64,000 bases of DNA from an uncultured Actinomycetota bacterium (GCA_963770565.1 CAVYQE010000001.1:1024001-1088000); one strand, 5' to 3'. Positions 1,875-19,194 are shown, counted from the stretch's first letter. Translations and numbers: made by a program. Notes: generated by a model not told the origin, from the letters alone.

Positions 1875-2440
1875 GCCAGCTCCTCGGCCCGGCTCAGGTC
1901 GGCCGGGGTGTCGCAGTCCAATGTCGCCGGGCGGTCTCCGTCCAGGCCCAGCCGGTGGACCGCTCCGGTTCGCTCGAGCTCGGCGAGCAGTGATCGCATC
2001 GGCATCCCTGACGGTACGTCGGGACACGCCGTGCGCAGGCGGGCGGTGTCGTAGCAGCCGATCAGCGGCTGGTCCTGACCGGACTCGTCGACCGCGATCG
2101 CGGCCGCGTCATGGCCCTTTGCGAGCCGGAGCGTGTCGATCGCAGCTGCGGAGATGAAGGGCAGGTCGGCTGCCAGCACGACGACGGTCGGGGCCTCAAC
2201 CAGCGCGAGTCCGGCCGCCAGGGCGGCGACCGGCCCGCCGCCCGGTGGGTCCTCGCGGGTCCAGGTCACGTCGTGCGAGGTGGGCAGCGTCGGTCCGACC
2301 ACGATCGTCGTCGCCGCGCCGGACAACGCGTCGAGCGCGACGTCGAGCAGCCGCCGTCCGCCGACCGTGGCCGCGGGTTTGATGATGCCGCCGAGTCGTC
2401 GGGCTTCGCCACCGGCGAGGACGATCCCGTCGAAACTCAT
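1871..2440 (-). CDS. mobA: Molybdenum cofactor guanylyltransferase
   Basis: GIVLAGGEARRLGG…K, EDPPGGGPVAAL, AADLP and DCDTPADL motifs; downstream of a molybdoenzyme. Confidence 0.85.
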   Translation of the reverse strand: MSFDGIVLAGGEARRLGGIIKPAATVGGRRLLDVALDALSGAATTIVVGPTLPTSHDVTWTREDPPGGGPVAALAAGLALVEAPTVVVLAADLPFISAAAIDTLRLAKGHDAAAIAVDESGQDQPLIGCYDTARLRTACPDVPSGMPMRSLLAELERTGAVHRLGLDGDRPATLDCDTPADLSRAEELA

Positions 2441-2447
2441 CGTGACG

Positions 2448-4763
2448 TCACGAAGGGGGCACTGCGTGCGACCGGGCCGGCTCGAGTCGCAGCACGATCG
2501 CCTTCGACGTCGGCGTACCGCTCCGGTCCGCCTGGCTGTCGAGCGGGACGAGCGAGTTGGCCTCCGGGAAGTACGCGGCGGCGCAACCACGAGCGGTGGG
2601 GAACGCGATGACCCGGAAGTGCTCCGCGATCCGGTCGACGCCGTCGCTCCACTCCGAGTGCAGGTCGACCACGTCGCCGTCGGCGAACCCGACCTCAGCC
2701 AGGTCGTCCGGGTTCACGAACACCACCCGCCGACCCTTGCGGACGCCGCGGTAGCGGTCATCGAGCCCGTAGATCGTGGTGTTGAACTGGTCGTGCGAGC
2801 GCACAGTCTGCAACAGCAGCCGGCCGGGTGGGCAGCGCGGCCACTCCAGCGGGTTAACCGTGATCTCGGCCCGCCCGCTCTTGGTCGGCCAGCGGCGCTC
2901 GTCCCTCGGCGGATGCGGAAGCACGAAGCCCTCAGGCTCGCGGACCCGCCGGTTGTAGTCCTCGCAACCGGGGACCACCCTGGCGATCCGGTCGCGGATC
3001 GCGTCGTAGTCGGCCTCGAAGTCCTTCCACGGCACCGGGCTGGTGTCGCCGAACATCCGCTGGGCCAGCTGGCAGACGATCGCCACCTCCGACCGCAGCG
3101 ACGGCGACGCCGGCTCCAGCTTGCCGTTCGAGGCGTGCACGCGGCAGACCGTGTCCTCGACGCTGACGAACTGCTCGCGGCCGGCCTGCCGGTCGACCTC
3201 GGTCCGGCCGAGTGCCGGCAGGATCAGTGCTTCCTCACCGGTGATGCCGTGCGAGTGGTTGAGCTTGGTGGATACCTGCACGGTCAGCCGGGTACGGCGA
3301 AACGCCGCCTCGGTCGCGACTGTGTCGGAGTTGGCGGCGGCGAAGTTGCCGCCCATCGCCATGAAGACTTTGATGGCGCCGTCGCGCATGTGTCGCACCG
3401 AGTCGACGACGTCGGTGCCGTACTCGCGCGGGAAGCTCATCCCGAACTCGCCTTCGAGCGCGTCGATGAACGCAGCGGTCGGGCGCTCCCAGATACCCAT
3501 CGTGCGGTCGCCCTGCACGTTGCTGTGCCCGCGGATCGGCGAGACGCCTGCACCCGGCTTGCCGATGTTGCCCCGCAGCAGGAGCAGGTTGACGATCTCC
3601 TGGATCGTCACGACGGCGTGCTTGTGCTGGGTCAGGCCCATCGCCCAGCAGATGATGACGCGGTCGGCACTGATGTAGCGCTGCGCGAGCTCGTCGATCT
3701 CCGCCGCCCTGAGGCCGGTTGCCTCCAGTACGTCGGCTTCGGAGAGCTGGCCGAGATGGGCCCGGAACTCCGGCAGGCCGCGGGTGTGCTCGGCGAGGAA
3801 GGCGTGGTCGAGGATCGATCCGGGCGCGCGGTCGTCGGCGTCGATCACCCGCCGGCTGACGGCCTGCATCAAGGCCATGTCGCCGCCGAGCCGGAGCTGG
3901 AGGAACTGGTCGGCGATCTGGGTGCCTCGGCCCAGCACCCCAGACGGTCGCTGCGGGTTCTTGAACCGGATCAGACCCGGCTCCGGCAGCGGGTTGACGG
4001 CGACGATCGACGTACCCCCGCGCTTGGCTTCTTCAAGCGCGGTCAGCATGCGCGGATGGTTCGTCCCGGGGTTCTGGCCCATGATGATGATCAGGTCCGA
4101 CTTGGCGAAATCTTCGTAGCTGACGCTCGACTTCCCGACTCCGATGCTCTCGCCGAGGGCGACGCCGGTGCTCTCGTGGCACATGTTGGAGCAGTCCGGA
4201 AGGTTGTTCGTGCCGAACGCCCGCACGAACAGCTGGTAGACGAAGGCGGCTTCGTTGCTGGTGCGGCCCGAGGTGTAGAAGGCCGCCTGGTTGGGGGAGT
4301 CAAGCGCCTTGAGATGGTGCGCGATCACATCGAACGCGTCGTCCCACGACACCGGCTGGTAGTGATCGCTGCCGGCCGGCTTGTAGACCGGCTCGACCAG
4401 GCGGCCCTGCTGGCCCAGCCAGTACTCGCTGCGCTGAGCGAGGTCGCTGACCGGATGCTCGGCCCAGAACCCGGGCTCCACCCGGAGTACGTCGGCTTCC
4501 CACGCGGTCGCCTTGGCGCCGTTCTCGCAGAACTCGATGGTGTGGCGGTGCGGCGGGTCCGGCCACGCGCAGGAGGTGCAGTCGAACCCGTCCTCCTGGT
4601 TGACCCGGCGCAGCGTCTTGCTGCTTCGCCATGCGCCCATCTCTCGTTCCGCGTGCTGAAGGGCATGGATGACACCGGGTACGCCGGCCGCCCACTGCGG
4701 CGGCTTGCTGACCTTGAGGTCGTCGTCTGTGACGTCCTCGCGGATCCGCTTGCGGCGTGGCAT
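2448..4763 (-). CDS. FdhF/YdeP family molybdopterin oxidoreductase
   Basis: GFDCTSCAWPDP, EFCENGAKA, YTSGRTSNEAAF, NLPDCSNMCHE, RSHDQFNTTIYG. Confidence 0.92.
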   Translation of the reverse strand: MPRRKRIREDVTDDDLKVSKPPQWAAGVPGVIHALQHAEREMGAWRSSKTLRRVNQEDGFDCTSCAWPDPPHRHTIEFCENGAKATAWEADVLRVEPGFWAEHPVSDLAQRSEYWLGQQGRLVEPVYKPAGSDHYQPVSWDDAFDVIAHHLKALDSPNQAAFYTSGRTSNEAAFVYQLFVRAFGTNNLPDCSNMCHESTGVALGESIGVGKSSVSYEDFAKSDLIIIMGQNPGTNHPRMLTALEEAKRGGTSIVAVNPLPEPGLIRFKNPQRPSGVLGRGTQIADQFLQLRLGGDMALMQAVSRRVIDADDRAPGSILDHAFLAEHTRGLPEFRAHLGQLSEADVLEATGLRAAEIDELAQRYISADRVIICWAMGLTQHKHAVVTIQEIVNLLLLRGNIGKPGAGVSPIRGHSNVQGDRTMGIWERPTAAFIDALEGEFGMSFPREYGTDVVDSVRHMRDGAIKVFMAMGGNFAAANSDTVATEAAFRRTRLTVQVSTKLNHSHGITGEEALILPALGRTEVDRQAGREQFVSVEDTVCRVHASNGKLEPASPSLRSEVAIVCQLAQRMFGDTSPVPWKDFEADYDAIRDRIARVVPGCEDYNRRVREPEGFVLPHPPRDERRWPTKSGRAEITVNPLEWPRCPPGRLLLQTVRSHDQFNTTIYGLDDRYRGVRKGRRVVFVNPDDLAEVGFADGDVVDLHSEWSDGVDRIAEHFRVIAFPTARGCAAAYFPEANSLVPLDSQADRSGTPTSKAIVLRLEPARSHAVPPS

Positions 4764-4777
4764 CGGGTCGACGCGCC

Positions 4778-5644
4778 TCAGCCGGTCACGGTCGAGATGA
4801 CCGGTCGGTCAGCAGAGTTGTGCACCCGGCCGGATCCGGCATAGATCACCATCGACGGACCTCGCAGGAAGCCGATCAGGGTCAGGCCGACCCGATCGGC
4901 CAGGTCGACGGCGAGTGCTGACGGAGCGGAAACCGCTGCCATTGCAGGGATACCGGCGACCGCTGCCTTCTGGGCGAGCTCGAACGATGCGCGGCCGGAC
5001 ACCAACAACAAGGTGGCGCGAAGCGGAAGTCGCCCCTCGCGCAATGCCCAGCCGACCACCTTGTCGACCGCGTTGTGCCGGCCGACGTCCTCGCGCAGGA
5101 CCAGCAGTTGCCCTGACGCGACGTCGAAGAGCGCGGCCGCATGCAAGCCGCCGGTCCGCTCGAAGACCTGCTGTGCCGCGCGCAGCTGATCGGGCAGGGT
5201 GGCGATCCACTCGGCGTCGAGGTTGGTCTCGTCGGCGCGCAGGTCGTACGGCGAGGTGACCTCTACGCCGTCGATCGTCGCCTTGCCGCACAGCCCGCAC
5301 GCACTGGTCGTCACCAACGCGCGTTGGAGCGACGTCGGCAGCTCGTCGATGTGCGTCGCGAGGTGGGCGTCCAGGACGTTATAGGTGTTGTGTCCCTCGT
5401 CGTCGACGCCCGCGCAGTAGCGCATCTCGCGGAGGTCTTCGCGATGCCGGATCACGCCTTCGCCGACCAGGAATCCGGCCAGCAGGTCCATGTCGTCGCC
5501 GGGCGTGCGCATCGTCACGGCGATCGCGCGGCCGCCGACCCGCATCTCGAGCGGTTCCTCGGCGACCAGTGTGTCCGGCGCGGTGACGGTCGGTTGGCCG
5601 ACGGTCACCCGTGACACCCGCCTGCTCACCGTTACCCGTCCCAC
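4778..5644 (-). CDS. fdhD: Formate dehydrogenase accessory sulfurtransferase
   Basis: EEPLE, TMRTPGDD, SACGLCGK, TGGLHAAA, REDVGRHNAVDK, SGRASFEL. Confidence 0.92.
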   Translation of the reverse strand: MGRVTVSRRVSRVTVGQPTVTAPDTLVAEEPLEMRVGGRAIAVTMRTPGDDMDLLAGFLVGEGVIRHREDLREMRYCAGVDDEGHNTYNVLDAHLATHIDELPTSLQRALVTTSACGLCGKATIDGVEVTSPYDLRADETNLDAEWIATLPDQLRAAQQVFERTGGLHAAALFDVASGQLLVLREDVGRHNAVDKVVGWALREGRLPLRATLLLVSGRASFELAQKAAVAGIPAMAAVSAPSALAVDLADRVGLTLIGFLRGPSMVIYAGSGRVHNSADRPVISTVTG

Positions 5645-5698
5645 GCCCCAAGTGTGCCCCAGAGGCCGTTGGGTATGCCCGCCCGTCCGGCTCGTGGG

Positions 5699-6130
5699 CT
5701 AGCTGATCGGCTCGCAGACGACCACCGGGATCTCGCGATCGGTCTTGCGTTGGTAGCCGGCGTAGTTGGAGTGCGCCGAGGTGATCTGTGGCCACAGCTC
5801 GGCTCGCTCGTCAGAGTCGGCGATGTGGGCCCGCATCCTGCGGGTCGAACCCTCCATCGTGACCTCGACCTCGGGCGTCTTGCGCAGGTTCTGACACCAC
5901 GAAGGTTCGCGATCGTCGCCGCCGTTCGATGCGACCAGCATCACCTTGTCACCGAGCACCAGCGGCGAGGTCAGCATCGTCGGCCGAGGCTTGCCGCTGG
6001 TCCGACCGGTGGTGGTCAGCTGGAGTACCGGCATCCCCAACGCGCGACCACCGATCCGGCCTTTGCTGGCGTTGAACAGGCTCCGGTGCATGAGGGTGAC
6101 GCTGCGGGACAGCTCGTCTTTGACGTTCAT
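5699..6130 (-). CDS. Deazaflavin (F420)-dependent nitroreductase family protein
   Basis: LTTTGRTSGKPR, VASNGG…PSW, YAGYQRKTDREIPVV. Confidence 0.88.
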   Translation of the reverse strand: MNVKDELSRSVTLMHRSLFNASKGRIGGRALGMPVLQLTTTGRTSGKPRPTMLTSPLVLGDKVMLVASNGGDDREPSWCQNLRKTPEVEVTMEGSTRRMRAHIADSDERAELWPQITSAHSNYAGYQRKTDREIPVVVCEPIS

Positions 6131-6236
6131 GGATCCATGATCGCGCACCGATTCGGCCGGTTGCCACTGGTGCGCGTTGTCCACGGGGACGGCGTTGGTT
6201 TCCGTTGTCCACAAAGGGCTTCTTCGTGCTGCCAGA

Positions 6237-6258
6237 TGTCGGCGGTCGGCAGTAGATT
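6237..6258 (+). promoter_or_regulatory. PafBC / RecA-NDp DNA-damage promoter motif
   Basis: TGTCGG-N10-TAGATT matches TGTCGG-N10-TA-N3-T exactly, upstream of DUF222-HNH. Confidence 0.7.
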
Positions 6259-6269
6259 CTGTTTGGGAG

Positions 6270-6285
6270 TCGAACATACGTTCGA
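6270..6285. promoter_or_regulatory. LexA (SOS) box
   Basis: TCGAACATACGTTCGA matches the actinobacterial TCGAAC-N4-GTTCGA consensus perfectly. Confidence 0.85.
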
Positions 6286-6336
6286 TCAGCGGGCGCGTCG
6301 AGAGTCGCGTCCAAGTGCAGGGATGAGGTGAGGTCG

Positions 6337-7497
6337 ATGTCGGAGTTGCTCTCCGTGCTCGACTCCCTTGCCGTCGATGACGTGCACGCGATGGCGGAGC
6401 CGACGCTCCTTGCCCGGACCGAGACGCTGCTCGCCGCGCGCAACAAGCTCGACGCCGAGATCGCTCGCTCTCTGCAGGCGCTCGACGTGCGCGATGTGAC
6501 GGTGCACGAGTGCGGCCGCACGACCGGTTCGTGGCTGGTCGAGGAGCAGCGGCTCTCCCGGTTGGAGGCAACCCGCCGGATGGGCGTTGCGCGACTGCTG
6601 CCCTATCACCCGGAGCTGACTGCGGGCCTGGCGACCGGTGACGTGTCGCACGAGCACGCCCGGCTGATCCTGGATTGCCTGCGCCGGTTGCCGAGCGAGT
6701 GGGCGCGAGTGGCCGAGCCCGAGCTGATCGCTGCCGCGGCTGAGGTCGATCCCACCTCGCTCGGCCAGTTGTGCCGGGAGCTCCGACTGCGTTCGGGCGC
6801 CGATGAGGATGCCGAGGCCGTCGCCCAGCGGATGTTCCGCGATCGGTGGCTACGACTGTCGACGACCTTTCAGGGCATGGTGCATCTCGAGGGAATGTTG
6901 GATCCCGAGTCCGCTGCGATCGTGACCACGGCGATCACGCCGTTGCTCGCCACCGTCGGCGCTGAGGACCACCGCGACTCGGGTCAGCGTCGAGCCGATG
7001 CCCTCGTCGAGCTCGCCCGGATGGCGCTGGCGGGCGGCAAGCTGCCGGACCACGGCGGGGACCGTCCGCAGATTGTGGTGAGCATCCCGTGGGGGGAGCT
7101 GCGCGACGGCGTTTCGGCCGGGCAGCTGCCGTCCGCAACGCTGAATGGCACGCCGCTCACGCCGGCGATCGCCCGGCGGATCGCATGTGACGCGGGGTTC
7201 ATCCCGGCAGTGCTCGGCGGGCCGTCCGAGATCCTCGACCTCGGCCGTTCGCAGCGCAGTTTCAGCCGCGCACAACGCCGCGCCGCCGCCCTTCGCGACA
7301 AGGGCTGCGTGTTTCCGCAATGCAGGGTCGGCCTCGACCGCTGCCAGTTGCATCACCTGGACTTTTGGGAGTACGGCGGCAAGACGAATCTGCGCGACAG
7401 CGCTTACGTGTGCACGTTCCACCATTGGCTCGTCCACCACACCAGTTGGGTCATCATCCGCAACGCCCAGGGCCGGATCGAGGTCCGACGAACGTGA
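6337..7497 (+). CDS. DUF222 domain HNH endonuclease (13E12-repeat-like)
   Basis: QRRADALVEL, RRIACDA, LDLGRSQR, RDKGCVFPQC…CQLHHL…GGKTNL…CTFHH. Confidence 0.9.
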   Translation: MSELLSVLDSLAVDDVHAMAEPTLLARTETLLAARNKLDAEIARSLQALDVRDVTVHECGRTTGSWLVEEQRLSRLEATRRMGVARLLPYHPELTAGLATGDVSHEHARLILDCLRRLPSEWARVAEPELIAAAAEVDPTSLGQLCRELRLRSGADEDAEAVAQRMFRDRWLRLSTTFQGMVHLEGMLDPESAAIVTTAITPLLATVGAEDHRDSGQRRADALVELARMALAGGKLPDHGGDRPQIVVSIPWGELRDGVSAGQLPSATLNGTPLTPAIARRIACDAGFIPAVLGGPSEILDLGRSQRSFSRAQRRAAALRDKGCVFPQCRVGLDRCQLHHLDFWEYGGKTNLRDSAYVCTFHHWLVHHTSWVIIRNAQGRIEVRRT

Positions 7498-7512
7498 TTC
7501 CTCGGTCGTGCG

Positions 7513-8673
7513 CTATTGCAGCTGTTCGAGCACGGAGCGACCCACTTCGGTCAAGGTCGCCTCCGGTGCGAGCGGGTGGGTGATGCCGGCGCGGACGTCG
7601 CGCAGCGCCTGCTCGTAGGGCTGGCGCCGGAAGTACGACATGCTGCCGAGCATCTCCATCGCGGTTTCGACCATGGCAATCGAGCTCAGCACGATCTGCC
7701 GCTTGGCCAGCATCGTGGCGCGAAAATGCACTTCGGTGAGGAGCGAGTCATCCGTCGTCCGGCGCAGCAGGCCTTCGAGGGCCCACCACGCCAGCCGCGA
7801 TTCCTGACTGAGCGCGCCGACGTGCCGATAGGTGATCGGGTCGTCGGGGTGCCGACCCTTGGTGACGTCGGTGAGCGCGCGTTCCCGGATGCCGTCGCCG
7901 GCGCCGAGATAGACCGCGGCGATCACCGTGAGCGCGATCAACAATCCGGGCGCCCGATGCGTGGTGCGATGCCGATCGGCGGGCTTGATCTCGCTCTCGA
8001 GTTCGTGCGTGCCGGTGATGTCGTCCTCGGGGACGAAGACGTCCTTGATCCCGATCCCGTTGCTCCCCGAGCCGCGCATGCCCATCGCATCCCAGGTATC
8101 GAGCACCTCGACGCCGGGTGCACTCATCGTGATCAGGACCGACGCAGCGACCGGCCCGCGCTGGTCGTCGATCAGGATCGGGGTCGCCAGGACGTCGGCG
8201 CCGGGGCAGCCGCTCGCCAGGCCCTTGCGACCGTTGAGTCGTAGCCCGCCGTCGACCCGGCTCGCGGTCACTCCGGGGTTGAGCGGGTCCGACGTACCGC
8301 TCGAGCACAGGATCAGGCCATCCGCGATCCGGCGTAGTGCGGACTCGACACCGGTATCGCCGCGGCGCCAGCGGCGCGCCATCGACAACACGGTGTGCTG
8401 GTGCATCGAGATTGCGAGGGAGGTATTCACGCACCCGGCGGCCATCGCGGCTTGGGCCCGGCACACGGTCGAGAGATCGTGGCCCCCGCCGCCGAGCTCC
8501 CGCGGAACGGCAACCGTGCCGTACCCGAGTTCGCGGATCGCCTCGTAGCCTTCCGCGACGAAGCTGGCTTCGCGATCGTGGTCGCCGGCGAACGGTTCGG
8601 CATGGCGGCCGATCTCGCGGGCGATCGCGATGACCTCGGACGGATCGAGCGACCCGTCGCCGGCGTCGGTCAT
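7513..8673 (-). CDS. Acyl-CoA dehydrogenase-fold flavoprotein (possible flavin monooxygenase/oxidase), coupled to the MNIO gene
   Basis: VPRELGGGG, LNGRKGLASG, DTWDAMGMRGSGS, EQALRDVRAG; ATG overlaps the DUF692 stop (ATGA). Confidence 0.8.
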   Translation of the reverse strand: MTDAGDGSLDPSEVIAIAREIGRHAEPFAGDHDREASFVAEGYEAIRELGYGTVAVPRELGGGGHDLSTVCRAQAAMAAGCVNTSLAISMHQHTVLSMARRWRRGDTGVESALRRIADGLILCSSGTSDPLNPGVTASRVDGGLRLNGRKGLASGCPGADVLATPILIDDQRGPVAASVLITMSAPGVEVLDTWDAMGMRGSGSNGIGIKDVFVPEDDITGTHELESEIKPADRHRTTHRAPGLLIALTVIAAVYLGAGDGIRERALTDVTKGRHPDDPITYRHVGALSQESRLAWWALEGLLRRTTDDSLLTEVHFRATMLAKRQIVLSSIAMVETAMEMLGSMSYFRRQPYEQALRDVRAGITHPLAPEATLTEVGRSVLEQLQ

Positions 8674-9533
8674 GACCGCGGCGCCGTCAGCTCGCGGGTC
8701 GGGATCGGGTCGGCGGCGGCCAGGATGCTGCGCACCGTGGCAAGGTCGGCGCGGACCTGATCCGCCGCGCCCTCCCAGTCGGTGTCGCGTTCGATGAAGA
8801 TGATGTCGGGGTTGGCTCGCGTCAACACACGTTCGAGCAACCTGAACACCTCCTCGTGCACCGGGCGCGAGTGCGAGTCGATCCATTCCTCGCCATGCCG
8901 GGTCCCGCCGGCCAGGTGGATGTAGCGGATCCGCTCAGCGGGCAGGGAGTCGATGAATGCCTCGGCATCGAGCGGGCGGTTCTGCGAGTTGATCCAGATG
9001 TTGGTCAGGTCGAGCAGGCAGTCCCACTCCGGCGAGGCATCGAGAAGTTCGCGGTAGAACTCTTCCGGCGTGTACGTCGAGCCGCTGATCATCGTCGTGG
9101 TCGCGAGGTTCTCCAGTCGCACTCGTCGGCCGGTCGCCGCCGAGATCCGGGCGATGTTCGCGACGGCGCACTCGAGCAGCTCGTCGTCGAAGCGATTCGG
9201 CGCGAGGTGACCGAGCGCGTGGCCGCCGGCGGCGGTGAATGCCAGGTGGTCGCTGTAGGCAACTGCGCCGACCGCGTCGGCGAGCCGCGCGATCCGGCCG
9301 AGGTAAGCCTCGGTCGGTCCGCTCACCGAAGCGACGTTGCCGCAAAGCCCATGGATCGCGACCGGGATGCCGGCCACGCCGAGCTCACGCAACTCCCACG
9401 ATCGGCAGAAGCCGGAGTCGGCGAAATAACGGTCCGCGACGAGTTCCACCACGTCGACCGCGCAACCGTCCGGTCCGGAGTAGAGCTCCGGCAGCTCGGG
9501 TCGGTAGCCCGCCCCCACCATCGTCAGGCCCAC
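8670..9533 (-). CDS. DUF692 family multinuclear non-heme iron-dependent oxidative enzyme (MNIO; MbnB/TglH/ChrH/BufB family)
   Basis: GAGYRPEL start, IHGL, YSDHLAF, GHLAP, LENLA, LLDLTN, IHLAGG, IDSHS, IERD: full set of DUF692 metal-ligand motifs. Alternative ATG at 9521. Confidence 0.9.
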   Translation of the reverse strand: MGLTMVGAGYRPELPELYSGPDGCAVDVVELVADRYFADSGFCRSWELRELGVAGIPVAIHGLCGNVASVSGPTEAYLGRIARLADAVGAVAYSDHLAFTAAGGHALGHLAPNRFDDELLECAVANIARISAATGRRVRLENLATTTMISGSTYTPEEFYRELLDASPEWDCLLDLTNIWINSQNRPLDAEAFIDSLPAERIRYIHLAGGTRHGEEWIDSHSRPVHEEVFRLLERVLTRANPDIIFIERDTDWEGAADQVRADLATVRSILAAADPIPTRELTAPRS

Positions 9534-10327
9534 TCGAGAACCCCCTGGGAATGCAGTCGTGCCAGCGTAACGATCGTGCGCTCCGGTTGATCGATGTCAA
9601 TGCAAAGCTCAGCGGCGGATTGCGGGCCGTGTTCGCGGAGGCGGGTCAGCGCGGTCGCGGCGGCGGGGAACAGGCGCAGGATCTTCGGGTCGCGGCGCTG
9701 GCCATCTTGGAAGAACAGCAGATCGCACGGATCGGGCGGAAGGTCGCGTAGCTCGGTCAGGGTGAAGGAGCGAAGCTGACGCAGATCCCAGTCAAAATGC
9801 TGCACCTCGATGCTCGGGTGCAGCCGCAGCAGCCGACCGCGATCGAAGGTGTCTGGAGCCGCCTGCGGATTGCTCCGATCGGGTAGAAGTTCCAACGGTG
9901 CCGGCTGCCAGAAAGCCCGGCAGACGGCGAGCTCGAAGATCGCGAGTTCGGCGATCGCCGGGCCGCATTCGCTCGTCGGGGCCGAGTCGACCGCGAGCCG
10001 GACGAGTGCCGCGCCGAAGCCCAGCGGGTCGTCGGACAGCGCTTCGGTCTGCGGTGTGTCGGCGGCGTAGTCCGCCAGCAAAGCCTCCGCCGACGCTCCG
10101 AGCAGCACAAATGTGCGCGGAAGCGCGCGGCGCAGGATCCCCTGACGCTTGTTGACGAAGGAGGCGGTCAGTGCGGCGAGGTCCGGGACCATGGCGACGA
10201 ACGTGTCGAGGTCGGCGCCCGTCAAGCCGAGTCGGCCGGCATATGCCGGGGGATCGGCAAGGCATTCGGACCGGTCACGACGGCTCGTGATGACGGCCCC
10301 CATCGCCGATTCAAGATCGTGGCGCAC
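9524..10327 (-). CDS. MNIO partner protein (DUF2063 / BufC-HvfC-like)
   Basis: LRRALPRTFVLLG…LLADY…P…FGAAL…IAELAIFELAV…LRLHPS…FDWDL pattern; abuts the DUF692 gene. Confidence 0.7.
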   Translation of the reverse strand: MRHDLESAMGAVITSRRDRSECLADPPAYAGRLGLTGADLDTFVAMVPDLAALTASFVNKRQGILRRALPRTFVLLGASAEALLADYAADTPQTEALSDDPLGFGAALVRLAVDSAPTSECGPAIAELAIFELAVCRAFWQPAPLELLPDRSNPQAAPDTFDRGRLLRLHPSIEVQHFDWDLRQLRSFTLTELRDLPPDPCDLLFFQDGQRRDPKILRLFPAAATALTRLREHGPQSAAELCIDIDQPERTIVTLARLHSQGVLEWA

Positions 10328-10414
10328 CTAGCCATTGTGCCGGTCTGGCGTTACCGTGAGCGTGGAAGAGCCTTTGGGTTGGACGGTTGATCGGCTGTCC
10401 TGGGGGAGGCCAGT

Positions 10415-11293
10415 ATGGGCGAGCACGAACTTGCACAGGGTTACTTGCGTGGGGAGATCTCTCGTCGGACCATGATCCGGCGTCTCGTCGGTGGCGGTCT
10501 TTCGCTGGTCGCAGCGTCCGCCTTCGTCGACGAGCTGACGGCGGCGGATGCGGCACCGTCCGCGCACGGCGTGCCGTCGATCACCTCGATCACCCCGTCG
10601 TCGGGACCGCCGTCCGGCGGGACCAAGGTGGTCATCCGCGGCAAGCACTTCCTCGGTACGACGGCGGTGCACTTCGGCTCGCACAAGGCGAAGATCCATT
10701 CGGTGGCGTCGGCCTCGATCCACGTGACGTCGCCGAAGGGCTCGACCGGCTCGGTCGACATCACCGTCACGAACAGTCACGGCACGTCGAAGAAGAGCAA
10801 GCACCATCACTTCACCTACGTCCACAACCTCGCGCCGACGGTGACCAAGGTCGTGCCGGCCTCGGGTCCATCGGCCGGCGGCACCGCGGTAGTCGTTTCC
10901 GGGCGCAACCTCGGCAAGGCCTCGGCGGTTCACTTCGGATCTCGTCGCGGCACGATCACCAAGGTCGGCGCGACGTCGATCCACGTGAAGTCGCCGATCG
11001 GCTCCGGCGTGGTCGACGTCACTGTGACCACCTCGCACGGCACCTCCCACAAGCACGCGGCTGACCACTACCACTTCCTGGTTGCCCCGACACCGACACC
11101 GACGCCGACTCCCACTCCCACGCCGACGCCGACTCCCACTCCGACTCCGACTCCGACGCCGACGCCGACGCCCACGCCCACGCCCACCTCGGGGAGCAGT
11201 TGCAACTCCGGTTGCAGCACGAGTGGCAGTTGTAACTCCGGTTGCGGCGTCGGGTGCAACTCGAGCGGTTGCTTCCAGTGCGGTTCAGGTTGA
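10415..11293 (+). CDS. Predicted Tat-exported protein: 2x IPT/TIG-like domain, (PT)17 linker, Cys-rich C-terminal tail; putative MNIO substrate
   Basis: GGGAGG RBS; ISRRTMIRRL twin-Arg plus hydrophobic stretch and ADA cleavage site; two PxxTxxxPxSGPxxGGTxVVxxGxxxxxxxAVHFG repeats; tail SGSSCNSGCSTSGSCNSGCGVGCNSSGCFQCGSG. Confidence 0.85.
   Translation: MGEHELAQGYLRGEISRRTMIRRLVGGGLSLVAASAFVDELTAADAAPSAHGVPSITSITPSSGPPSGGTKVVIRGKHFLGTTAVHFGSHKAKIHSVASASIHVTSPKGSTGSVDITVTNSHGTSKKSKHHHFTYVHNLAPTVTKVVPASGPSAGGTAVVVSGRNLGKASAVHFGSRRGTITKVGATSIHVKSPIGSGVVDVTVTTSHGTSHKHAADHYHFLVAPTPTPTPTPTPTPTPTPTPTPTPTPTPTPTPTPTSGSSCNSGCSTSGSCNSGCGVGCNSSGCFQCGSG
11087..11188 (+). repeat. Coding hexamer repeat (CCN ACN)x17 encoding a Pro-Thr stalk
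   Basis: 102 nt of CCG/CCC-ACA/ACG/ACT/ACC codon pairs; synonymous variation shows protein-level selection. Confidence 0.9.
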
Positions 11294-11339
11294 GGATCCG
11301 GGTTCCGGAAGTGACGTCCGTCACTGGTGACGGGTTGCG

Positions 11340-12695
11340 GTGACCGAAGGCGGCACCGAGGCCCCTGAGGGGGACGCCGCCGGGCTGCGGTTGGACGAGC
11401 CGGTGGTCGTGCTGACCGGCTCGCGGCACGGTTCGACGTTGGTGCGCTTGATCCTCGACGCCCACCCCTCGCTGGCCTGTCCGGCCGAGACCAACATCCT
11501 CTCGCTGTCGGCGCGGTTGGCGCGGGCCGCCCGGCTACTCGCAAGTTCCGGCGATCCCGCCCTCGGCCCTCCGCTCGACATCGCCCGGGAGACGATCGAC
11601 GCGTTGTTTGCCGACCATCTGCGCCGGGTCGGCAAGCAACGCTGGTGCGACAAGTCGATCGACTCGTCGCGGAACGCCGCTGCGTTTCTCGAGTGGTATC
11701 CGAAGACGAAGTTCCTCTGCCTGTATCGGCACTGCCTCGACGTGATCGATTCAGGCATCGAGGTGACGCCCTGGGGGCTGTCGAGCTTCGGGTTCCGTCC
11801 GTACGGGCAGCGCCACCCGGGCAACGACGTCGCCGCGATCGCCGAGTACTGGTTGACGATGACGACCCGGACGCTCGAGTTCGAGCAGGCTCACCCCGAG
11901 GTCTGCCATCGGGTCTACTACGAGGACCTGGTCGGGGCGCCCGAGGACGTTGCCGCCGAGATCTTCGAGTTCCTCGGCGAGCCCGTCGTACCCGGCATCA
12001 CCGCGACCTGCTTCACCACGGTGGGTGCTCCGGTCGGGCCGGGCGATCCGAAGGTGTGGGCGACGTCGGCCATCTCGGCCAGGTCGATCGGGCGCGGCGC
12101 CCGGGTGCCGCTCGAGCTCATTCCGGTCACCCTTCGCGACCCGGTGTCCGAGCTGCTGGTCGAGCTGGGGTATCCCAAGCTGGGCGACCGGTACGACCAG
12201 GTCGGCCGAGCGCCTTCGAACGGCGCCGCCCCGGCCACTCCAGGCGACGACATCGACCAGCGAATCGGGGCGCACCTGCGCGAAGCCCTCTCGATGCTTC
12301 CCCCGATCAGTGGTTCATGGCGGGCCGCGCTCGACGGCAAGCCGGTGGCGATCGTGGGATCGCCCTGGCCGGATGCGTCGTCGCATTGGCGGGTCGACCT
12401 GGCCGGGCGGAGCTGCGTGCGCTCGAGCGGTGATCCGCTGGACGGCACCGCGTGGGCGGTCCTCGCCGAACCTGACGCGCTGATCGACGTGATGAACGGT
12501 CGGCTCAACCTAGCGATCGCCATGCGGCGGGGCCTGATCCGGATCGAGCGCGACCATTCGACTGCGCTGTCGACGGACGTCAGCCAGCTGGTGCCGCTGG
12601 CCAGGGTCGGGCGCGACGATGTCGTCCGGCTGCAGGTCACCGCGCGGCTGCTCGGCGCCCCGTCGGCCGATCCGGACGAATCATGGGAGCAGTGA
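11340..12695 (+). CDS. PAPS-dependent sulfotransferase (TPST/Sulfotransfer_3-like) with C-terminal SCP2-like domain
   Basis: 5'-PSB-like GSRHGSTLVRLILDAHP, RWCDKS, 3'-PB-like YRHCLDVIDS, YEDLV; C-terminal WRVDL…LIDVMNGRLNLAIAMRRGLIRIE. Confidence 0.85.
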   Translation: MTEGGTEAPEGDAAGLRLDEPVVVLTGSRHGSTLVRLILDAHPSLACPAETNILSLSARLARAARLLASSGDPALGPPLDIARETIDALFADHLRRVGKQRWCDKSIDSSRNAAAFLEWYPKTKFLCLYRHCLDVIDSGIEVTPWGLSSFGFRPYGQRHPGNDVAAIAEYWLTMTTRTLEFEQAHPEVCHRVYYEDLVGAPEDVAAEIFEFLGEPVVPGITATCFTTVGAPVGPGDPKVWATSAISARSIGRGARVPLELIPVTLRDPVSELLVELGYPKLGDRYDQVGRAPSNGAAPATPGDDIDQRIGAHLREALSMLPPISGSWRAALDGKPVAIVGSPWPDASSHWRVDLAGRSCVRSSGDPLDGTAWAVLAEPDALIDVMNGRLNLAIAMRRGLIRIERDHSTALSTDVSQLVPLARVGRDDVVRLQVTARLLGAPSADPDESWEQ

Positions 12696-13780
12696 TGTCT
12701 CCGCAGCCCGAGGACGCGCTGCCCCACGAGAAAGCGCCGCCTCACGAGGAAGCGCTGCCCCACGACGAGCCGGCCGAAGACGAGGTCAGCCCGGAGTGGT
12801 GCCACTGGGCGGCCGTGTCGCTGCTCTCGGGAATGCCCCTGGCCGAGGTGATCTCGACGATGGCCGCGCAGGGCGTGCCCGAGCCGGATGCCGCGCGGGT
12901 GTGCGCGGCGGCGTTCATGGATCCGATGTTCGAGGCCGCGCAGACAATTGCACAGCAACACCGCAAGCTCGTCTCGGTGCTGGCGATGCGATCGACGATG
13001 CTGGACCTGGCCGAGAACGGGCGCGCGATCGAGCGCCGGTCCGGACTGAGCCGCAAGGAGTTCCTCGACGACTACTACGCCCGCAACCGGCCGGTCGTCC
13101 TCGAGGACGTCTGTGACACCTGGCCGGCGGTCGCGCAGTGGACCCCTGAGTACCTGGCCGAGGTGATCGGCTCCGCCGAGGTCGAGGTGATGTCCGACCG
13201 CGATGCCGACGACGACTACGAGATCAACGCGGACGCGCACAAGCAGTACATGCCCTTCGACGACTATGTTGCCCGGGTCCTCGCCGCTCAGTCGACGAAC
13301 GATCTCTATCTGGTGGCGAACAACCACCTGTTGGAGTCCGGCGTGGCCGAGCCGCTCTGGCGAGACATCGCGCTCGACGAGCGATACCTGGATCGCGGCG
13401 ATGCCGCGAGCCGGACCTACCTGTGGTTCGGCGCGGGTGGCACGATCACCAAGCTCCACCACGACGTGATGAACGTGATGTTCCACCAGGTCATGGGCTG
13501 GAAGCAGTTCACCTTGATCTCGCCGCTGGAGACCCCGCACCTCTATAACAACGCGTCGGTCTACAGCGATGTCGACCCGAAGTCGCCCGACTACACCCGG
13601 TTCCCGGCGTACGCGAATGCGCACCCGATCCATGTCACGGTCGGCCCGGGTGAGGCCTTGTTCGTGCCGGTCGGGTGGTGGCACCACGTCGAGGCGCTCG
13701 AGATGAGCATCAGCGTCTCGTCCACGAGCTTCGCCTTCCCGAACTCGATCGAGTGGTTCCATCCGGAGCGGCTGGGCTGA
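12695..13780 (+). CDS. JmjC / Cupin_8 Fe(II)-2OG oxygenase
   Basis: NRPVVL…WPA…WT, LWFG…TKLHHD (HxD), QVMGWKQFTLISP, GEALFVPVGWWHHV; ATG overlaps the sulfotransferase TGA. Confidence 0.88.
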   Translation: MSPQPEDALPHEKAPPHEEALPHDEPAEDEVSPEWCHWAAVSLLSGMPLAEVISTMAAQGVPEPDAARVCAAAFMDPMFEAAQTIAQQHRKLVSVLAMRSTMLDLAENGRAIERRSGLSRKEFLDDYYARNRPVVLEDVCDTWPAVAQWTPEYLAEVIGSAEVEVMSDRDADDDYEINADAHKQYMPFDDYVARVLAAQSTNDLYLVANNHLLESGVAEPLWRDIALDERYLDRGDAASRTYLWFGAGGTITKLHHDVMNVMFHQVMGWKQFTLISPLETPHLYNNASVYSDVDPKSPDYTRFPAYANAHPIHVTVGPGEALFVPVGWWHHVEALEMSISVSSTSFAFPNSIEWFHPERLG

Positions 13781-13816
13781 GCCTCGCGGTCCGGTCGGCG
13801 GCGATACCTTCAGGAC

Positions 13817-15043
13817 ATGACCGAGACCTCGGTGACGTTCCAGCCGTTCAGCGCGGCGTTCACCGATGACCCGTATCCGCACTACGCGGAGCTCCGGGCC
13901 CAGGTGCCGGTGGAGCAGCATGCGCTCGGCTTCTGGGCGCTGTGGCGGCATGCGGACGTGACCGAGGTGCTGCGGGCCCGGCTGTCGGTCGAGGAGGGCA
14001 ATGTCACCAGCTTCGGGCCGATGCGAGCGGTGTACGACGAGATCTACCGGGAGGCCAACACCGGCCGGCGCGGCGAGGGCATGTCGATGCTCGACCGCGA
14101 TCCGCCGGACCACACCCGGCTTCGCCGGCTCGTGTCGCGCGCGTTCACGCCACGCCGGATCGAGACCCTCATCCCGGTCGTCCAGTCCCTCGTCGACGAC
14201 GCGCTGGACCGGATCGCCGACGCCGGCGAAGTCGACCTCATCGAGGCGCTGGCGTTTCCCCTGCCGTTCGCGGTGATCTCGACGATGCTCGGGATGCCGG
14301 AGACCGATGTCACGCGGTTGCGCGAGCTGTCTCACCTGATCGTCAAGTCGCTCGAACCGGTGCCGGACGAGCAGACCATCCGCGAGATCATCCTGGCCGA
14401 CAAGGAGATGGCCGACCGTACCGCCGAGGCGATCGAGTGGAAGCGCGATCATCCCGCCGACGACCTGCTGACCGCGCTGATCAACGCCGAAGACGGCGGT
14501 GATGTGCTCAGCGACGAGGAGCTGATCGGTCAGGTGGTGCTGCTCTACGTCGCGGGTCACGAGACGACGGTCAACCTGATCGGCAATGGCACGCTGGCGC
14601 TGCTCAACGACCCCGCGCAGGCCGCGCTCTGGCGGGAGCGACCCGATCTCGACGACAACGCGGTCGAGGAGCTGCTGCGCTACGACAGTCCGGTGCAGCT
14701 GACCCGGCGGATCACCCTCGAGGACTACGAGGTCGACGGCCACGTCATCCCGAAGGGGAGTTTCGTCATGGCCAGCCTCGGCTCGGCCAACCGCGACGGG
14801 GCGCAGTTCGGGCCGGACGCCGACCGGGTCAGGCTCGATCGCGCGAACGCGAAGCAGCATGCGTCGTTCGGCGGCGGCGTCCACCACTGTCTCGGCGCCG
14901 CGCTGGCCCGGACCGAGGGCCGGATCGCGCTGTCGTCGCTGGTCCGCCGGTTCCCGTCGCTCGCCCTCGCCGGCGAGCCGGCCCGCAACGGGCGGATCAA
15001 CCTGCGCGGCCTCACCGCGCTCCCGGTCAGCGTCGAGTCATGA
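13817..15043 (+). CDS. Cytochrome P450
   Basis: DPPDHTRLRRLV, AGHETT, EELLRY, FGGGVHHCLG heme motif. Confidence 0.95.
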   Translation: MTETSVTFQPFSAAFTDDPYPHYAELRAQVPVEQHALGFWALWRHADVTEVLRARLSVEEGNVTSFGPMRAVYDEIYREANTGRRGEGMSMLDRDPPDHTRLRRLVSRAFTPRRIETLIPVVQSLVDDALDRIADAGEVDLIEALAFPLPFAVISTMLGMPETDVTRLRELSHLIVKSLEPVPDEQTIREIILADKEMADRTAEAIEWKRDHPADDLLTALINAEDGGDVLSDEELIGQVVLLYVAGHETTVNLIGNGTLALLNDPAQAALWRERPDLDDNAVEELLRYDSPVQLTRRITLEDYEVDGHVIPKGSFVMASLGSANRDGAQFGPDADRVRLDRANAKQHASFGGGVHHCLGAALARTEGRIALSSLVRRFPSLALAGEPARNGRINLRGLTALPVSVES

Positions 15044-15597
15044 CCACCGAGTCGCTGAAGGGCAAACTGCTCATCGCCGCGCCGGGGATGCAGGAGCCGA
15101 CCTTTTCGCGCACCGTGATCAGCGTGCTCGAGCACACCGACGACGGCGCACTGGGTGTCGTGATCAACCGCCCCGGTGACGCCTCGCTGATCGACATCGT
15201 GCCGCCGGTGGCTGAGCTCGCGAGCGAGCCGGCGGTGCTGTTCGCCGGCGGCCCGGTCGAACCGCAAGCCGCGATCGCCCTCGGTTTCGTCACCGGGACC
15301 GCAGCCGGCGACGCCTGCCGGCCGGTCGTTCCGCCATTGGTGACGGTGGACCTGGACTCCGATCCGGCCATCCTTGCCGCCTCGCTCCGAGAGCTCCGCG
15401 TCTTCTCCGGGTACGCCGGTTGGTCGGCCGGCCAGCTCGAGGGCGAGATCGCGGTCGGCGCCTGGTATGTCGTCGAGGCGTTGCCGCTCGACGCGTTCGA
15501 CGCGGAGCCGGGCCGGCTGTGGGCGGCGGTCCTTCGCCGGCAGCCGTGGCCGTTGTGTGCGGTCGCGACCTGTCCCATCGATCCGACCATGAACTGA
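15040..15597 (+). CDS. YqgE/AlgH family protein
   Basis: LKGKLLIAAP, FSRTVI, GVVINRP, GGPV, RVFSGYAGWSAGQLEGE. Confidence 0.9.
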   Translation: MTTESLKGKLLIAAPGMQEPTFSRTVISVLEHTDDGALGVVINRPGDASLIDIVPPVAELASEPAVLFAGGPVEPQAAIALGFVTGTAAGDACRPVVPPLVTVDLDSDPAILAASLRELRVFSGYAGWSAGQLEGEIAVGAWYVVEALPLDAFDAEPGRLWAAVLRRQPWPLCAVATCPIDPTMN

Positions 15598-15609
15598 GAG
15601 GCACCTGCG

Positions 15610-16524
15610 GTGGTTGCGCCGAGCGGCGAGCAGTTCGAGATCACGTCCGGTGAGCAGCGCGCGACCGTGGTCGAGGTCGGCGGCGGTCTCCGTACCTACA
15701 CGGTCGGTGACCGCGCGGTCCTCGACGGGTACGACGAGGCCGCGACCTGCGACGGAGCGCGCTGCCAGACCCTCGTGCCGTGGCCGAACCGCGTGCATGA
15801 CGGGAAGTGGAACTGGCGCGGCGCGGACTTGCAGCTCGCGCTGACCGAACCCGAGCAGCACAACGCGATTCACGGCCTGGTGCGTTGGATGCCATGGTCG
15901 GTGATCGAGCGCGCTGCCTCGTCGATCACGGTCGGCTGCACCTCACATCCGCAACCGGGCTATCCGTGGACGATCGAGGTTCGCAACGCGTGGTCGCTCG
16001 GCGCGGACGGTGTTGCGGTCGAAACCACGATCGTCAACCGCAGCGAGTCGATCGCACCGGTCGCTGCCGGGTTTCATCCTTACGTGCGGGTCGGAACCTC
16101 GACGATCGACGACGCCGTGCTGACCGTGCCCGGCGACACCCGGATCCTGACCGGCGAGCAGCAGATCCCGACCGGCCGCGAGCCGGTTGCCGGCACGGCA
16201 TACGACTTCCGGTCACCGCGCCGGATCGGCGACCTCGCGATCGACCACACCTATACCGACCTGCACCGCGACGACGACGGCCTAGCTCGCCTTCGGCTGG
16301 CCGCACCCGACCGAAGCGAGCAAGTGACGGTCTGGGTCGACGGGGCGTACCCGTACCTCGAGCTGTTCACCGGTGACGCGCTTCCAGATCCATCGCGCCG
16401 ACGCCAGGGGCTGGGAGTGGAGCCGATGTCGGTCCCGCCGAACGCGCTGGTCACTGGCGAGTCGGTGGTCGCACTCGAGCCAGGCGGGTCTTGGCGGGGA
16501 CATTGGGGAATCAACCCCTTCTAA
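15610..16524 (+). CDS. Aldose 1-epimerase family protein
   Basis: LVPWPNRV, HNAIHGLV, GFHPY, VEPMS. Confidence 0.88.
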   Translation: MVAPSGEQFEITSGEQRATVVEVGGGLRTYTVGDRAVLDGYDEAATCDGARCQTLVPWPNRVHDGKWNWRGADLQLALTEPEQHNAIHGLVRWMPWSVIERAASSITVGCTSHPQPGYPWTIEVRNAWSLGADGVAVETTIVNRSESIAPVAAGFHPYVRVGTSTIDDAVLTVPGDTRILTGEQQIPTGREPVAGTAYDFRSPRRIGDLAIDHTYTDLHRDDDGLARLRLAAPDRSEQVTVWVDGAYPYLELFTGDALPDPSRRRQGLGVEPMSVPPNALVTGESVVALEPGGSWRGHWGINPF

Positions 16525-16590
16525 CCTCGCGACCTTCACATCCGGAGTGGGACCGGAAGACTGGGCAGCAATCGCCGTACGATACGGCGC

Positions 16591-16974
16591 GTGCGCGATG
16601 AGGTTCGGCTGCCGCCACACCCCGCAAGCGTCGGGCGGGCGCGCCGTTTCGTCGTCGACCGGCTGGCCGAACTCGGAGTTGCCGATCCCGCCGCCAATGC
16701 CGCGCTGATCGTCAGCGAACTCGTGACGAACGCCGTGATGCACGCCGGTACGACGATCACCGTGCGCGTCACCGCGGCGGGTGCCGGGGCGCGGGTGGAG
16801 GTCGTGGACGGCAGCCAGGTGCTCCCCGGACTGCGGGTGGTGTCGGTCGGGTCAGGCTCGGGACGCGGGATGTCCCTGGTCGCGCATTTCGCCAGCCAGT
16901 GGGGGGCCGAACGCACCGCCGTCGGCAAGGTCGTCTGGTTCGTCATCGGTGCGGCCGCCGAGGCGACCGGCTAG
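16591..16974 (+). CDS. ATP-binding protein, RsbW-like anti-sigma factor (HATPase_c_2)
   Basis: SVGRARRF, SELVTNAVMH, GRGMSLV…WG…GKVVWF. Confidence 0.85.
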   Translation: MRDEVRLPPHPASVGRARRFVVDRLAELGVADPAANAALIVSELVTNAVMHAGTTITVRVTAAGAGARVEVVDGSQVLPGLRVVSVGSGSGRGMSLVAHFASQWGAERTAVGKVVWFVIGAAAEATG

Positions 16975-16984
16975 ACAGTAGGTC

Positions 16985-18625: not shown

Positions 18626-19194
18626 CGGTGGACCTCGCCGACCAGCGTGACGCCCGCTGCGCTCATCTCGGCAAGTGCGGCCTGAACAGTGTCCGGCGCG
18701 ACCCCGGCGGTGAGGTCGAGCAGGACGGTGGGCGCGAAGCCCTCGCGAGCCGCGTCGATCGCGGTGGCCCGGACGCAGTGGTCCGTCGCGAGCCCGACGA
18801 TGTCGACCCGGTCGACGTCGCGCTCGCGCAGCCAGTCGGCCAGCGTGCTGCCTTCGCCATTGGTGCCCTCGAATCCGCTGTACGCCGCTTCCCACTCGCC
18901 CTTGTCGAACACCGCGTCGAGTCGTTGGGTGTCGAGGTTCGGGTGGAGCTCCGCACCCGCGGTGCCGATCTTGCAGTGCGCCGGCCATGAGTCGACATAG
19001 TCGGGCGTGGATGAGAAGTGCCCGTCCGGGTCGCGGTGCGCGTCGCGGGTCGCGGCGACGACCGGATAGTCGGCCGTGGCGAGCAGCGCACTGATGCCGG
19101 CCGCCACCGCGGCGCCGCCGGGGACCGCGAGCGAGCCACCCTCGCAGAAGTCGTTCTGGACGTCGACGACGAGCAGCGCCTTGACCACGCTCAC
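18622..19194 (-). CDS. pncA: Nicotinamidase/pyrazinamidase
   Basis: VVDVQNDFCEGGSL, HFS…WPAHC, GLATDHCVRATA. Confidence 0.92.
   Translation of the reverse strand: MSVVKALLVVDVQNDFCEGGSLAVPGGAAVAAGISALLATADYPVVAATRDAHRDPDGHFSSTPDYVDSWPAHCKIGTAGAELHPNLDTQRLDAVFDKGEWEAAYSGFEGTNGEGSTLADWLRERDVDRVDIVGLATDHCVRATAIDAAREGFAPTVLLDLTAGVAPDTVQAALAEMSAAGVTLVGEVHR

Follow-up and report, generated by a model that had tools for sequence, protein, structure and literature searches.

We analysed a window of 64,000 nucleotides from the genome of an uncultured soil actinobacterium (GCA_963770565.1, CAVYQE010000001.1:1024001-1088000; 'the window' means this whole stretch, and positions are counted from its first letter), and we focus here on an island of six genes at 7499-13778 that is built around an MNIO (DUF692) enzyme and a protein with a Cys-rich C-terminal tail. 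The open reading frame (ORF) listing and scans with hidden Markov models (HMMs) place these genes in two divergent units on either side of an intergenic region of 87 bp (10328-10414). The left unit, on the minus strand, encodes in order a partner protein of 267 aa (9524-10327), the MNIO (8670-9533) and a flavoenzyme with an acyl-CoA dehydrogenase (ACAD) fold (7513-8673). The right unit, on the plus strand, encodes the putative precursor protein of 292 aa (10415-11293), a sulfotransferase (11340-12695) and a JmjC/Cupin_8 oxygenase (12695-13780, with an alternative ATG at 12683). The genes are tightly packed: the flavoenzyme start and the MNIO stop have an ATGA in common, the MNIO start is abutted or overlapped by the partner stop, the JmjC start and the sulfotransferase stop have TGATG in common, and non-coding DNA within the island amounts to one stretch of 87 bp and one of 46 bp. 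An initial annotation made from the sequence alone had described the same six ORFs at the same places, with the divergent layout and the overlapping start and stop codons; both descriptions hold, and Pfam supports the identity of five of the six products.

Compared with a genome of the same genus (G003), the six genes behave as a single indel. This sister genome is 89-90% identical over window positions 2000-7498 and 13779-19000 and collinear on both sides, and in the junction alignment it has approximately 44 bp where the window has 7499-13778, so that the missing stretch is exactly the 6.3-kb island. Because the indel has these ends, the island coordinates agree almost to the base with those of the initial annotation. 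The GC content of the island is similar to that of its flanks, and a DNA contig from a second study spans the left junction (7109-7642).

The set also recurs elsewhere. Pattern scans for the MNIO across approximately 186,000 species genomes yielded 16 distinct loci with 56-65% identical MNIOs (individual loci carry L numbers below), whose contents were read by tblastn, ORF reading and family HMMs; all are from actinobacterial metagenome-assembled genomes (MAGs) labelled Acidimicrobiales/Acidimicrobiaceae, Streptosporangiaceae, Mycobacteriales or plain Actinomycetes. The partner is encoded in 16/16 loci. An ACAD-fold gene directly follows the MNIO in 12 of the 16, being absent in L010, L012 and L018, with the L025 contig ending in the MNIO itself; a JmjC gene is adjacent in nine, and in three more the contig edge falls just there. 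A precursor-like gene is adjacent in 12 loci (six intact, three frameshifted, three truncated behind the leader where the contig stops). The frameshifted copies (L007, L011 and L019) are broken inside the low-complexity Pro-rich and Cys-repeat stretches of long-read MAGs, and the flavoenzyme gene is also frameshifted in L011 and L019, as is the JmjC gene in L019; assembly error in repeats or homopolymers is likelier here than decay. The three loci with partner and MNIO only (L010, L012, L018) are from genomes that carry an unlinked precursor (leader profile E ~1e-15), which in two of the three stands divergent beside a flavoenzyme orthologue. Downstream of the MNIO in L018 and L012 we found no small ORF, only unrelated genes, and JmjC homologues (44-46% identical) elsewhere in these three genomes were not counted, having no precursor or flavoenzyme gene beside them. 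An ORF upstream of the partner in L010 (216-1688, minus strand) is LanC-like by eye, with a GxxG / CCG-type motif pattern. L021 represents a 17th kind of locus, in which partner, MNIO and flavoenzyme are directly preceded by a different set (2115-6229): first a 200-aa repeat protein with P-Y-D-D repeats and a C-terminal S-C-S-S-C-S, then a 915-aa fusion of radical-SAM and 2-oxoglutarate (2OG)-Fe(II) oxygenase domains and a PhyH-like gene. No further conserved ORF family beyond the known enzymes emerged from an all-against-all comparison of the loci. In 41 kin genomes (a set that includes one genome, G040, flagged unpublished) the MNIO subfamily is present in two, the window's own included. The gene set is thus beyond chance, since the sister genome lacks exactly the block and the set recurs in 16 related loci. 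The co-occurrence of the six genes, which the initial annotation had put forward as a check, holds for partner, flavoenzyme, JmjC enzyme and precursor (12 adjacent and 3 unlinked) and fails for the window's sulfotransferase.

The MNIO scans also returned two more distant matches at 32-34% identity. Directly before one of these (L027, 32% identical; BufB 204 bits) lies a 268-aa protein (6178-6984, plus strand) with N-terminal CxxC pairs, hydrophobic segments and a Ser/Gly/Cys-rich C-terminal tail, without a match to TIGR04222 or any other NCBIfam model.

The window MNIO matches PF05114 almost end to end (profile positions 2-262 of 263) with 185.2 bits, the cut-off being 25, which confirms the DUF692 identity proposed before, and it is the single MNIO in the whole genome by profile search. 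Its best NCBIfam scores, given here with the equivalog cut-offs, are to BufB (148/310) and HvfB (119/360), followed by ApyH (79/400), MbnB (43/325) and ChrH (37/600). The nearest solved chain is 3bww. Nine residues (H61, H96, E141, D175, N178, H206, D219, H221 and E248) at His/Asp/Glu motif positions are invariant in seven MNIO family members and identical in 3bww; these are putative iron ligands.

The partner has no NCBIfam match and no Pfam match even at E<=10, and a search of its profile against PDB sequences gave nothing meaningful (best E 0.68). The label DUF2063-like in the initial annotation is thus not borne out by a PF09836 signature; the fold is another matter. The AlphaFold2 (AF2) model, with a predicted local distance difference test (pLDDT) score of 90, has a helical N-domain and a beta/winged-helix C-domain resembling a recognition element (RRE) of peptides that are made by the ribosome and modified post-translationally (RiPPs). 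Its top three Foldseek matches, all at probability 1.00, are 8hi7_A (E 3.7e-5) and 8hci_A, both TglHI, and 3dee (E 1.9e-4), which is NGO1945, the DUF2063 prototype. Against 1.84 billion representative sequences the partner profile found 338 proteins at E<=1e-3 and 42 at E<=1e-30. Among 65 distant, mostly full-length matches, 17 match NGO1945_C, 15 PqqD and four DUF2063, and a fusion to an MNIO is seen once; of seven closer partner relatives, one matches NGO1945_C (E 0.0029). Partners structurally like NGO1945/TglI that lack the DUF2063 signature have been termed PME-type 2 (Antoine et al. 2025, PMC12452194). The modelled NGO1945/TglI-like fold, the missing DUF2063 signature and a gene that abuts the MNIO gene all fit an assignment of the window partner to this type.

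The precursor comprises, from N to C terminus, a twin-arginine signal, two TIG domains, a (PT)17 linker (residues 225-258; 11087-11188) and a 34-aa tail (11189-11290), SGSSCNSGCSTSGSCNSGCGVGCNSSGCFQCGSG, which is the proposed core. As the initial annotation had recognised, the protein is an IPT/TIG protein (PF01833, 91.8 bits in two stretches, above cut-off) with a Cys-rich tail: all 7 Cys of the 292 residues lie in the tail, between residues 263 and 289, among Ser, Gly, Asn and Thr. The NCBIfam model CoaZ_rpt_PGGG also matches (49.7 bits against a cut-off of 30), whereas the DUF2282 and TIGR04222 profiles do not, the precursor giving TIG and low-complexity matches only; four relatives are likewise without TIGR04222.

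The leader of approximately 46 aa (10415-10552, the signal end being approximate) was compared in a 12-sequence alignment, in which L6, G13, R17, R18, L24, G28, A34 and F37 are invariant. Signals for twin-arginine translocation (Tat) combine a Z-R-R-x-hydrophobic-hydrophobic motif, a hydrophobic h-region and an A-x-A site, and the leader is of this kind: its motif reads S-R-R-T-M-I, R17, R18 and the h-region are kept in 12/12 sequences, and TatC of the Tat machinery is recognised in the genome at 224 bits. A search by shared exact words with leader residues 1-50 gave no match, which is uninformative. The precursor is therefore predicted from its signal to be exported via Tat, a correction to the initial annotation. 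Across the 41 kin genomes a profile of the leader matches at E ~1e-24 in exactly the two that bear the MNIO, and one more genome matches weakly (7.5e-4). Since the strong matches track the MNIO in this way, the leader is not a generic Tat signal.

Related precursors have in common only the leader (~45 aa), a linker and a C-terminal run of Cys. The linker, present in all complete homologues, is of Pro/Thr, Pro/His or Phe/Thr/Pro type (TP/HP/FTP) and of very different lengths. In the Cys run of the relatives, Cys mostly recurs with a period of three, interspersed with Ser, Gly, Ala and Thr, giving (S/G)-C-x-x repeats, and the count per run across precursors is 7 to approximately 17. Between leader and linker lie 0, 2 or 4 TIG domains, and close relatives differ in repeat number with the reading frame maintained. 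Conservation of leader and tail around a variable middle is what would be expected if both ends were functional and the middle were cargo; the anatomy thus points to the tail as the MNIO substrate. In most relatives a segment rich in Arg and Lys comes after the Cys run and in some cases includes a conserved Trp. This segment includes a short Pro/Ala-Ala/Ser-Trp motif in the precursors of L004, L019 and L125-L127, which may be a follower recognition element and is missing from the window precursor. Cys density on its own does not discriminate: a stretch of 40 aa with 7 or more Cys is present in 205 of the genome's 26,782 six-frame ORFs. In a genome of high GC content many off-frame ORFs are rich in Cys, and for this reason we rejected density as a statistic. 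A pattern for the small-residue Cys repeat has two matches in the genome, one of which, the tail, is near a C-terminus.

The flavoenzyme matches Acyl-CoA_dh_N/M/2 in Pfam, with the N domain above cut-off (35.6 bits) and the M domain (28.5 against 33.3) and C domain (21.6 against 22.7) both just under theirs, and has weak NCBIfam matches to SfnB/HsaA/DszC. The ACAD-fold flavoprotein of the initial annotation therefore stands on its N domain and its ACAD-fold solved matches, the other two domains falling slightly short. The nearest solved chains are 5gj7/5z8t, 4kcf/3m9v, 4zxv and 3mxl, so that N-oxygenases, HsaA and DszC come ahead of true ACADs. The enzyme appears to resemble flavin oxygenases (KijD3, DnmZ, nitrososynthase, HsaA, DszC) more than it does acyl-CoA dehydrogenases, and is a candidate group D flavin monooxygenase. 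The JmjC assignment is upheld by Cupin_8 at 160 bits together with JmjC_2, and the translation has the HxD...H iron triad of the 2-oxoglutarate oxygenase family as H-H-D and, later, W-W-H-H-V. The arginyl hydroxylase JMJD5 is the nearest solved chain (E 7e-32), followed by TYW5, JMJD7 and FIH. An N-terminal extension of approximately 120 aa is conserved and has no Pfam match.

The sulfotransferase matches Sulfotransfer_3 (PF13469) with 80.5 bits, and its AF2 model (pLDDT 82.7) has a TPST/CurM-like N-domain, the top Foldseek matches being TPST1/2, tick TPST and the CurM sulfotransferase, with an alpha/beta domain at residues 300-440. The initial annotation had called it a sulfotransferase-SCP2 protein; the first half of that label is supported, and for the second we found no Pfam match, to SCP2 (PF02036) or any other family, in residues 230-451 at E<=1, PF02036 being precomputed for one 34%-identical relative only. 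The protein belongs to a two-domain family with approximately 45 metagenomic relatives. In Streptosporangiaceae-labelled MAGs (L045-L123) this window-type family has undergone strong expansion, and single genomes carry several paralogues.

Sulfotransferases of another family recur in the related loci. Stf0-type genes (PF09037) adjoin the JmjC gene in L005, L009 and L022, and with an HMM built from these three, further copies were recognised 3' of the flavoenzyme gene (L011, L017 and L019; a weaker match in L004); in total, Stf0-type sulfotransferases are counted in six related loci. By sequence comparison the window sulfotransferase is a lineage-specific, apparently one-off recruit, though sulfotransferases recur. 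Since the window type and Stf0 are unrelated and serve the same system, two sulfotransferase families were recruited independently, which argues that sulfation matters for the product. Other accessory genes of the related loci encode EryCIII-like glycosyltransferases (five loci), a glycosyltransferase-like protein (five loci) and an LRV/HEAT-repeat protein (seven loci), the last two side by side in four, and secreted A4 peptidases (four loci).

A weak hint of transcription of the right-unit genes is given by a soil metatranscriptome library, available as contigs and from the study that also supplied the best DNA match. Contigs with 0 mismatches lie on the precursor gene (10661-10853 and 10916-11063), the sulfotransferase gene (11655-11814), the JmjC gene (13041-13206) and a cytochrome P450 gene (13846-13993). 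The scan for promoters and terminators returned 0 sites of each, with no sigma-70-like consensus in the 87-bp divergent region, which has little meaning in a high-GC actinobacterium.

Two neighbouring genes were considered as island members and rejected, both being present in the island-free sister genome. One is this P450 gene (13817-15043, plus strand), which begins 37 bp past the JmjC gene, falls beyond the indel and has conserved counterparts in kin genomes. The other is a DUF222 gene (6328-7497, plus strand) with an HNH-endonuclease-like C-terminus (PF02720, 116 bits), which ends at the left edge of the island; DUF222/HNH-like stretches occur many times across the kin genomes.

Taken together, the genes and their relatives support the reading given in the initial annotation, including the Cys tail as the likely substrate. 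We consider it fairly probable that the island encodes a RiPP-like protein maturation pathway around the MNIO, whose product is an exported protein with a modified and probably metal-binding Cys tail. The partner would present the precursor to the MNIO in the cytoplasm, whose RRE domain may, as we infer, bind the signal n-region. MNIO and partner would then oxidise cysteines of the C-terminal Cys-repeat tail, and by analogy with bufferins, oxazolins and methanobactins the likeliest products would be Cys-derived heterocycles, for example thiooxazoles or oxazolone/thioamides. Further oxidations could be added by the flavin monooxygenase-like ACAD-fold enzyme and the JMJD5-like JmjC hydroxylase. 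Here the TPST-like sulfotransferase may add sulfate, perhaps to Ser/Thr beside modified Cys or to Tyr, and in other lineages glycosyltransferases may decorate the product. The finished protein would leave the cell via Tat, a route that fits because the substrate would be modified and its TIG domains folded before crossing the membrane, and the modified tail would be displayed outside the cell on its Pro/Thr stalk, most likely, by analogy, as a metal-binding (copper) module.

The tail could instead work unmodified, as a metallothionein-like thiolate or disulfide cluster, with MNIO, flavoenzyme and JmjC enzyme modifying the leader, the Pro/Thr/His residues of the linker or the basic follower. 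The kinship of the JmjC enzyme to the arginyl hydroxylase JMJD5, the Arg/Lys-rich segment behind most Cys runs and the existence of MNIOs that act on Asp, Asn or Phe (PMC12452194) all speak for such an arrangement; we nevertheless hold it to be improbable, since the window protein has no basic follower, the Cys repeat is common to all complete precursors and even to the otherwise unrelated L021 protein, and Cys is the target of most known MNIOs (PMC12452194). It is a little less probable again that the MNIO in fact acts on a small molecule or on a short peptide missed by annotation, with the Tat protein a co-functioning binding, receptor or surface protein. ORF calling often misses RiPP precursors, and many MNIO clusters in the published survey are without an identifiable precursor (PMC12452194). 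Against this, the 87 bp and 46 bp of non-coding DNA leave little room in the island, the all-against-all comparison brought up no candidate ORF family other than known enzymes, the precursor remains beside the flavoenzyme in the split systems, and of the two genome matches to the Cys-repeat pattern the tail alone is near a C-terminus.

The Cys/Gly/Ser run with its basic residues might also be read as a sorting or anchoring signal of a surface protein, which the enzymes would process or attach, for example by lipidation or envelope cross-linking. The TIG repeats do match NCBIfam 'choice-of-anchor Z' repeat domains, a family presumably named for its variable C-terminal anchors, and a motif followed by a basic cluster loosely resembles tripartite sorting signals. 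Yet no hydrophobic helix lies between motif and basic cluster, that cluster is missing from the window and L007 proteins, and the Pfam scan detected no sortase- or exosortase-type gene in the island, all of which makes anchoring very unlikely.

Maturation of the Cys tail by MNIO and partner, followed by Tat export, remains the reading that we prefer, and several observations weigh against it. As the MNIO scores below all five equivalog cut-offs, its reaction cannot be read from its family. The window tail itself is less regular than those of its relatives, with C-x2-5-C spacing, an Asn content and none of the basic follower seen in most of them. The window sulfotransferase has an orthologue in 0/16 related MNIO loci by tblastn, and 0/79 loci with relatives of it carry MNIO, partner, JmjC, flavoenzyme or precursor genes. 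L021 has its partner, MNIO and flavoenzyme without a Tat-leader precursor. By ORF listing and Pfam scan, the island contains no copper-related gene, transporter or protease. The RNA-library contigs touch neither MNIO, partner nor flavoenzyme genes, and for those that were found DNA carry-over is possible; such gaps are not evidence of silence.

A bolder, joint version of the preferred reading would define a new class of MNIO-matured exported proteins, and as a whole we regard it as conceivable yet doubtful. Here the Tat n-region would double as the RiPP leader, and the partner RRE would hold it in the manner of a Tat proofreading chaperone, so that export would wait for maturation. The tail would become a run of heterocycles (from 7 to ~17 Cys) that are further oxidised and, in some lineages, sulfated or glycosylated. 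The outcome would be a polymeric, metal-binding or redox-active appendage on interchangeable cargo of 0-4 TIG domains, perhaps released by A4 peptidases in some lineages.

New peptide chemistry and copper-handling molecules are being found with MNIOs at a growing pace, and the six-gene kit makes a good candidate new family of modified proteins that probably bind metal. The present family would add an MNIO substrate that is exported by Tat rather than Sec. Its modular design of leader, any cargo, linker and Cys-repeat core suggests that the tail may be a portable tag for different proteins. It would also add two conserved co-enzymes, the ACAD-fold flavoenzyme and the JMJD5-like hydroxylase, neither of which we found paired with such a substrate in the MNIO literature searched. 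As a compact unit with a natural 'empty site' in the sister genome, the island is directly clonable and testable.

How new is this combination? The initial annotation knew of no described MNIO cluster of this kind, and our searches found no pairing with this substrate, although partial precedents exist. In full-text searches MNIO and sulfotransferase occurred together in no paper, twin-arginine occurred in no MNIO/DUF692 paper among the matches listed, and multinuclear, RiPP and Tat came together only in an unrelated paper. The main text of the MNIO landscape survey (PMC12452194) uses none of the terms Tat, JmjC, cupin, acyl-CoA or Acidimicrobi, and its supplementary tables may list this MNIO group. 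That survey sought precursors in the ORFs preceding MNIO genes and stressed Sec signals (PMC12452194); such a screen would miss the present precursor, because the partner precedes the MNIO and the precursor gene is divergent.

According to the same survey, MNIOs mostly modify Cys with the help of partners of DUF2063-RRE type, and copper is bound by the exported bufferins and oxazolins (PMC12452194). The bufferin (BufA/BufB/BufC) and oxazolin (HvfA/HvfB/HvfC) systems resemble ours in having an MNIO with a partner and a Cys-rich precursor in which an export signal replaces the classical leader, and the window MNIO has its highest NCBIfam scores with BufB and HvfB. The window MNIO is nonetheless far under their equivalog cut-offs, its partner precedes it and has no DUF2063 Pfam signature, the predicted signal is twin-arginine and not Sec, and no DoxX or sigma/anti-sigma genes are present. 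The window precursor is modular with a C-terminal repeat core, unlike DUF2282, Buf_6/12Cys or EGKCG proteins, and it is the flavoenzyme and the JmjC enzyme that are conserved instead. Another comparison is with the TIGR04222 proteins near Actinomycetota MNIOs, whose C-terminal Ser/Gly/Cys tails have been proposed as MNIO substrates, and some of whose clusters hold PME-type 2 partners, as here (PMC12452194). Those are membrane proteins, whereas the present precursors are predicted to be soluble, have a Tat signal and no transmembrane segments, and come with a different conserved gene set.

The partner model has its best structural matches in TglI, of the pearlin TglHI system, and in NGO1945, at a sequence identity of 13-17%; the substrate of TglH, in contrast, is a Cys appended to the C-terminus of a scaffold peptide. 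For the tailoring enzymes, a parallel is found in group II methanobactin operons, in which MbnB/C acting on Cys are accompanied by the sulfotransferase MbnS, responsible for threonine sulfonation beside the heterocycle, and the flavin monooxygenase MbnF, which gives both sulfation and flavin oxidation a precedent next to an MNIO reaction (as these operons are described in PMC3621798). MbnS (PF00685) and MbnF (PF01494) are not homologous to the window enzymes, however, and MbnA is a short peptide of leader and core, with MATE pumps exporting the product made from it. The biphenomycin clusters, as outlined in PMC12257519, likewise unite an MNIO and a JmjC-type/cupin hydroxylase in one RiPP cluster, but their MNIO hydroxylates Phe, their precursors are short peptides, and a B12-radical-SAM enzyme and an arginase are needed (PMC12257519). 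Set beside these, the island is a system of the MNIO-partner type in which the architecture of the precursor and the conserved co-enzymes are new, rather than a new category of system.

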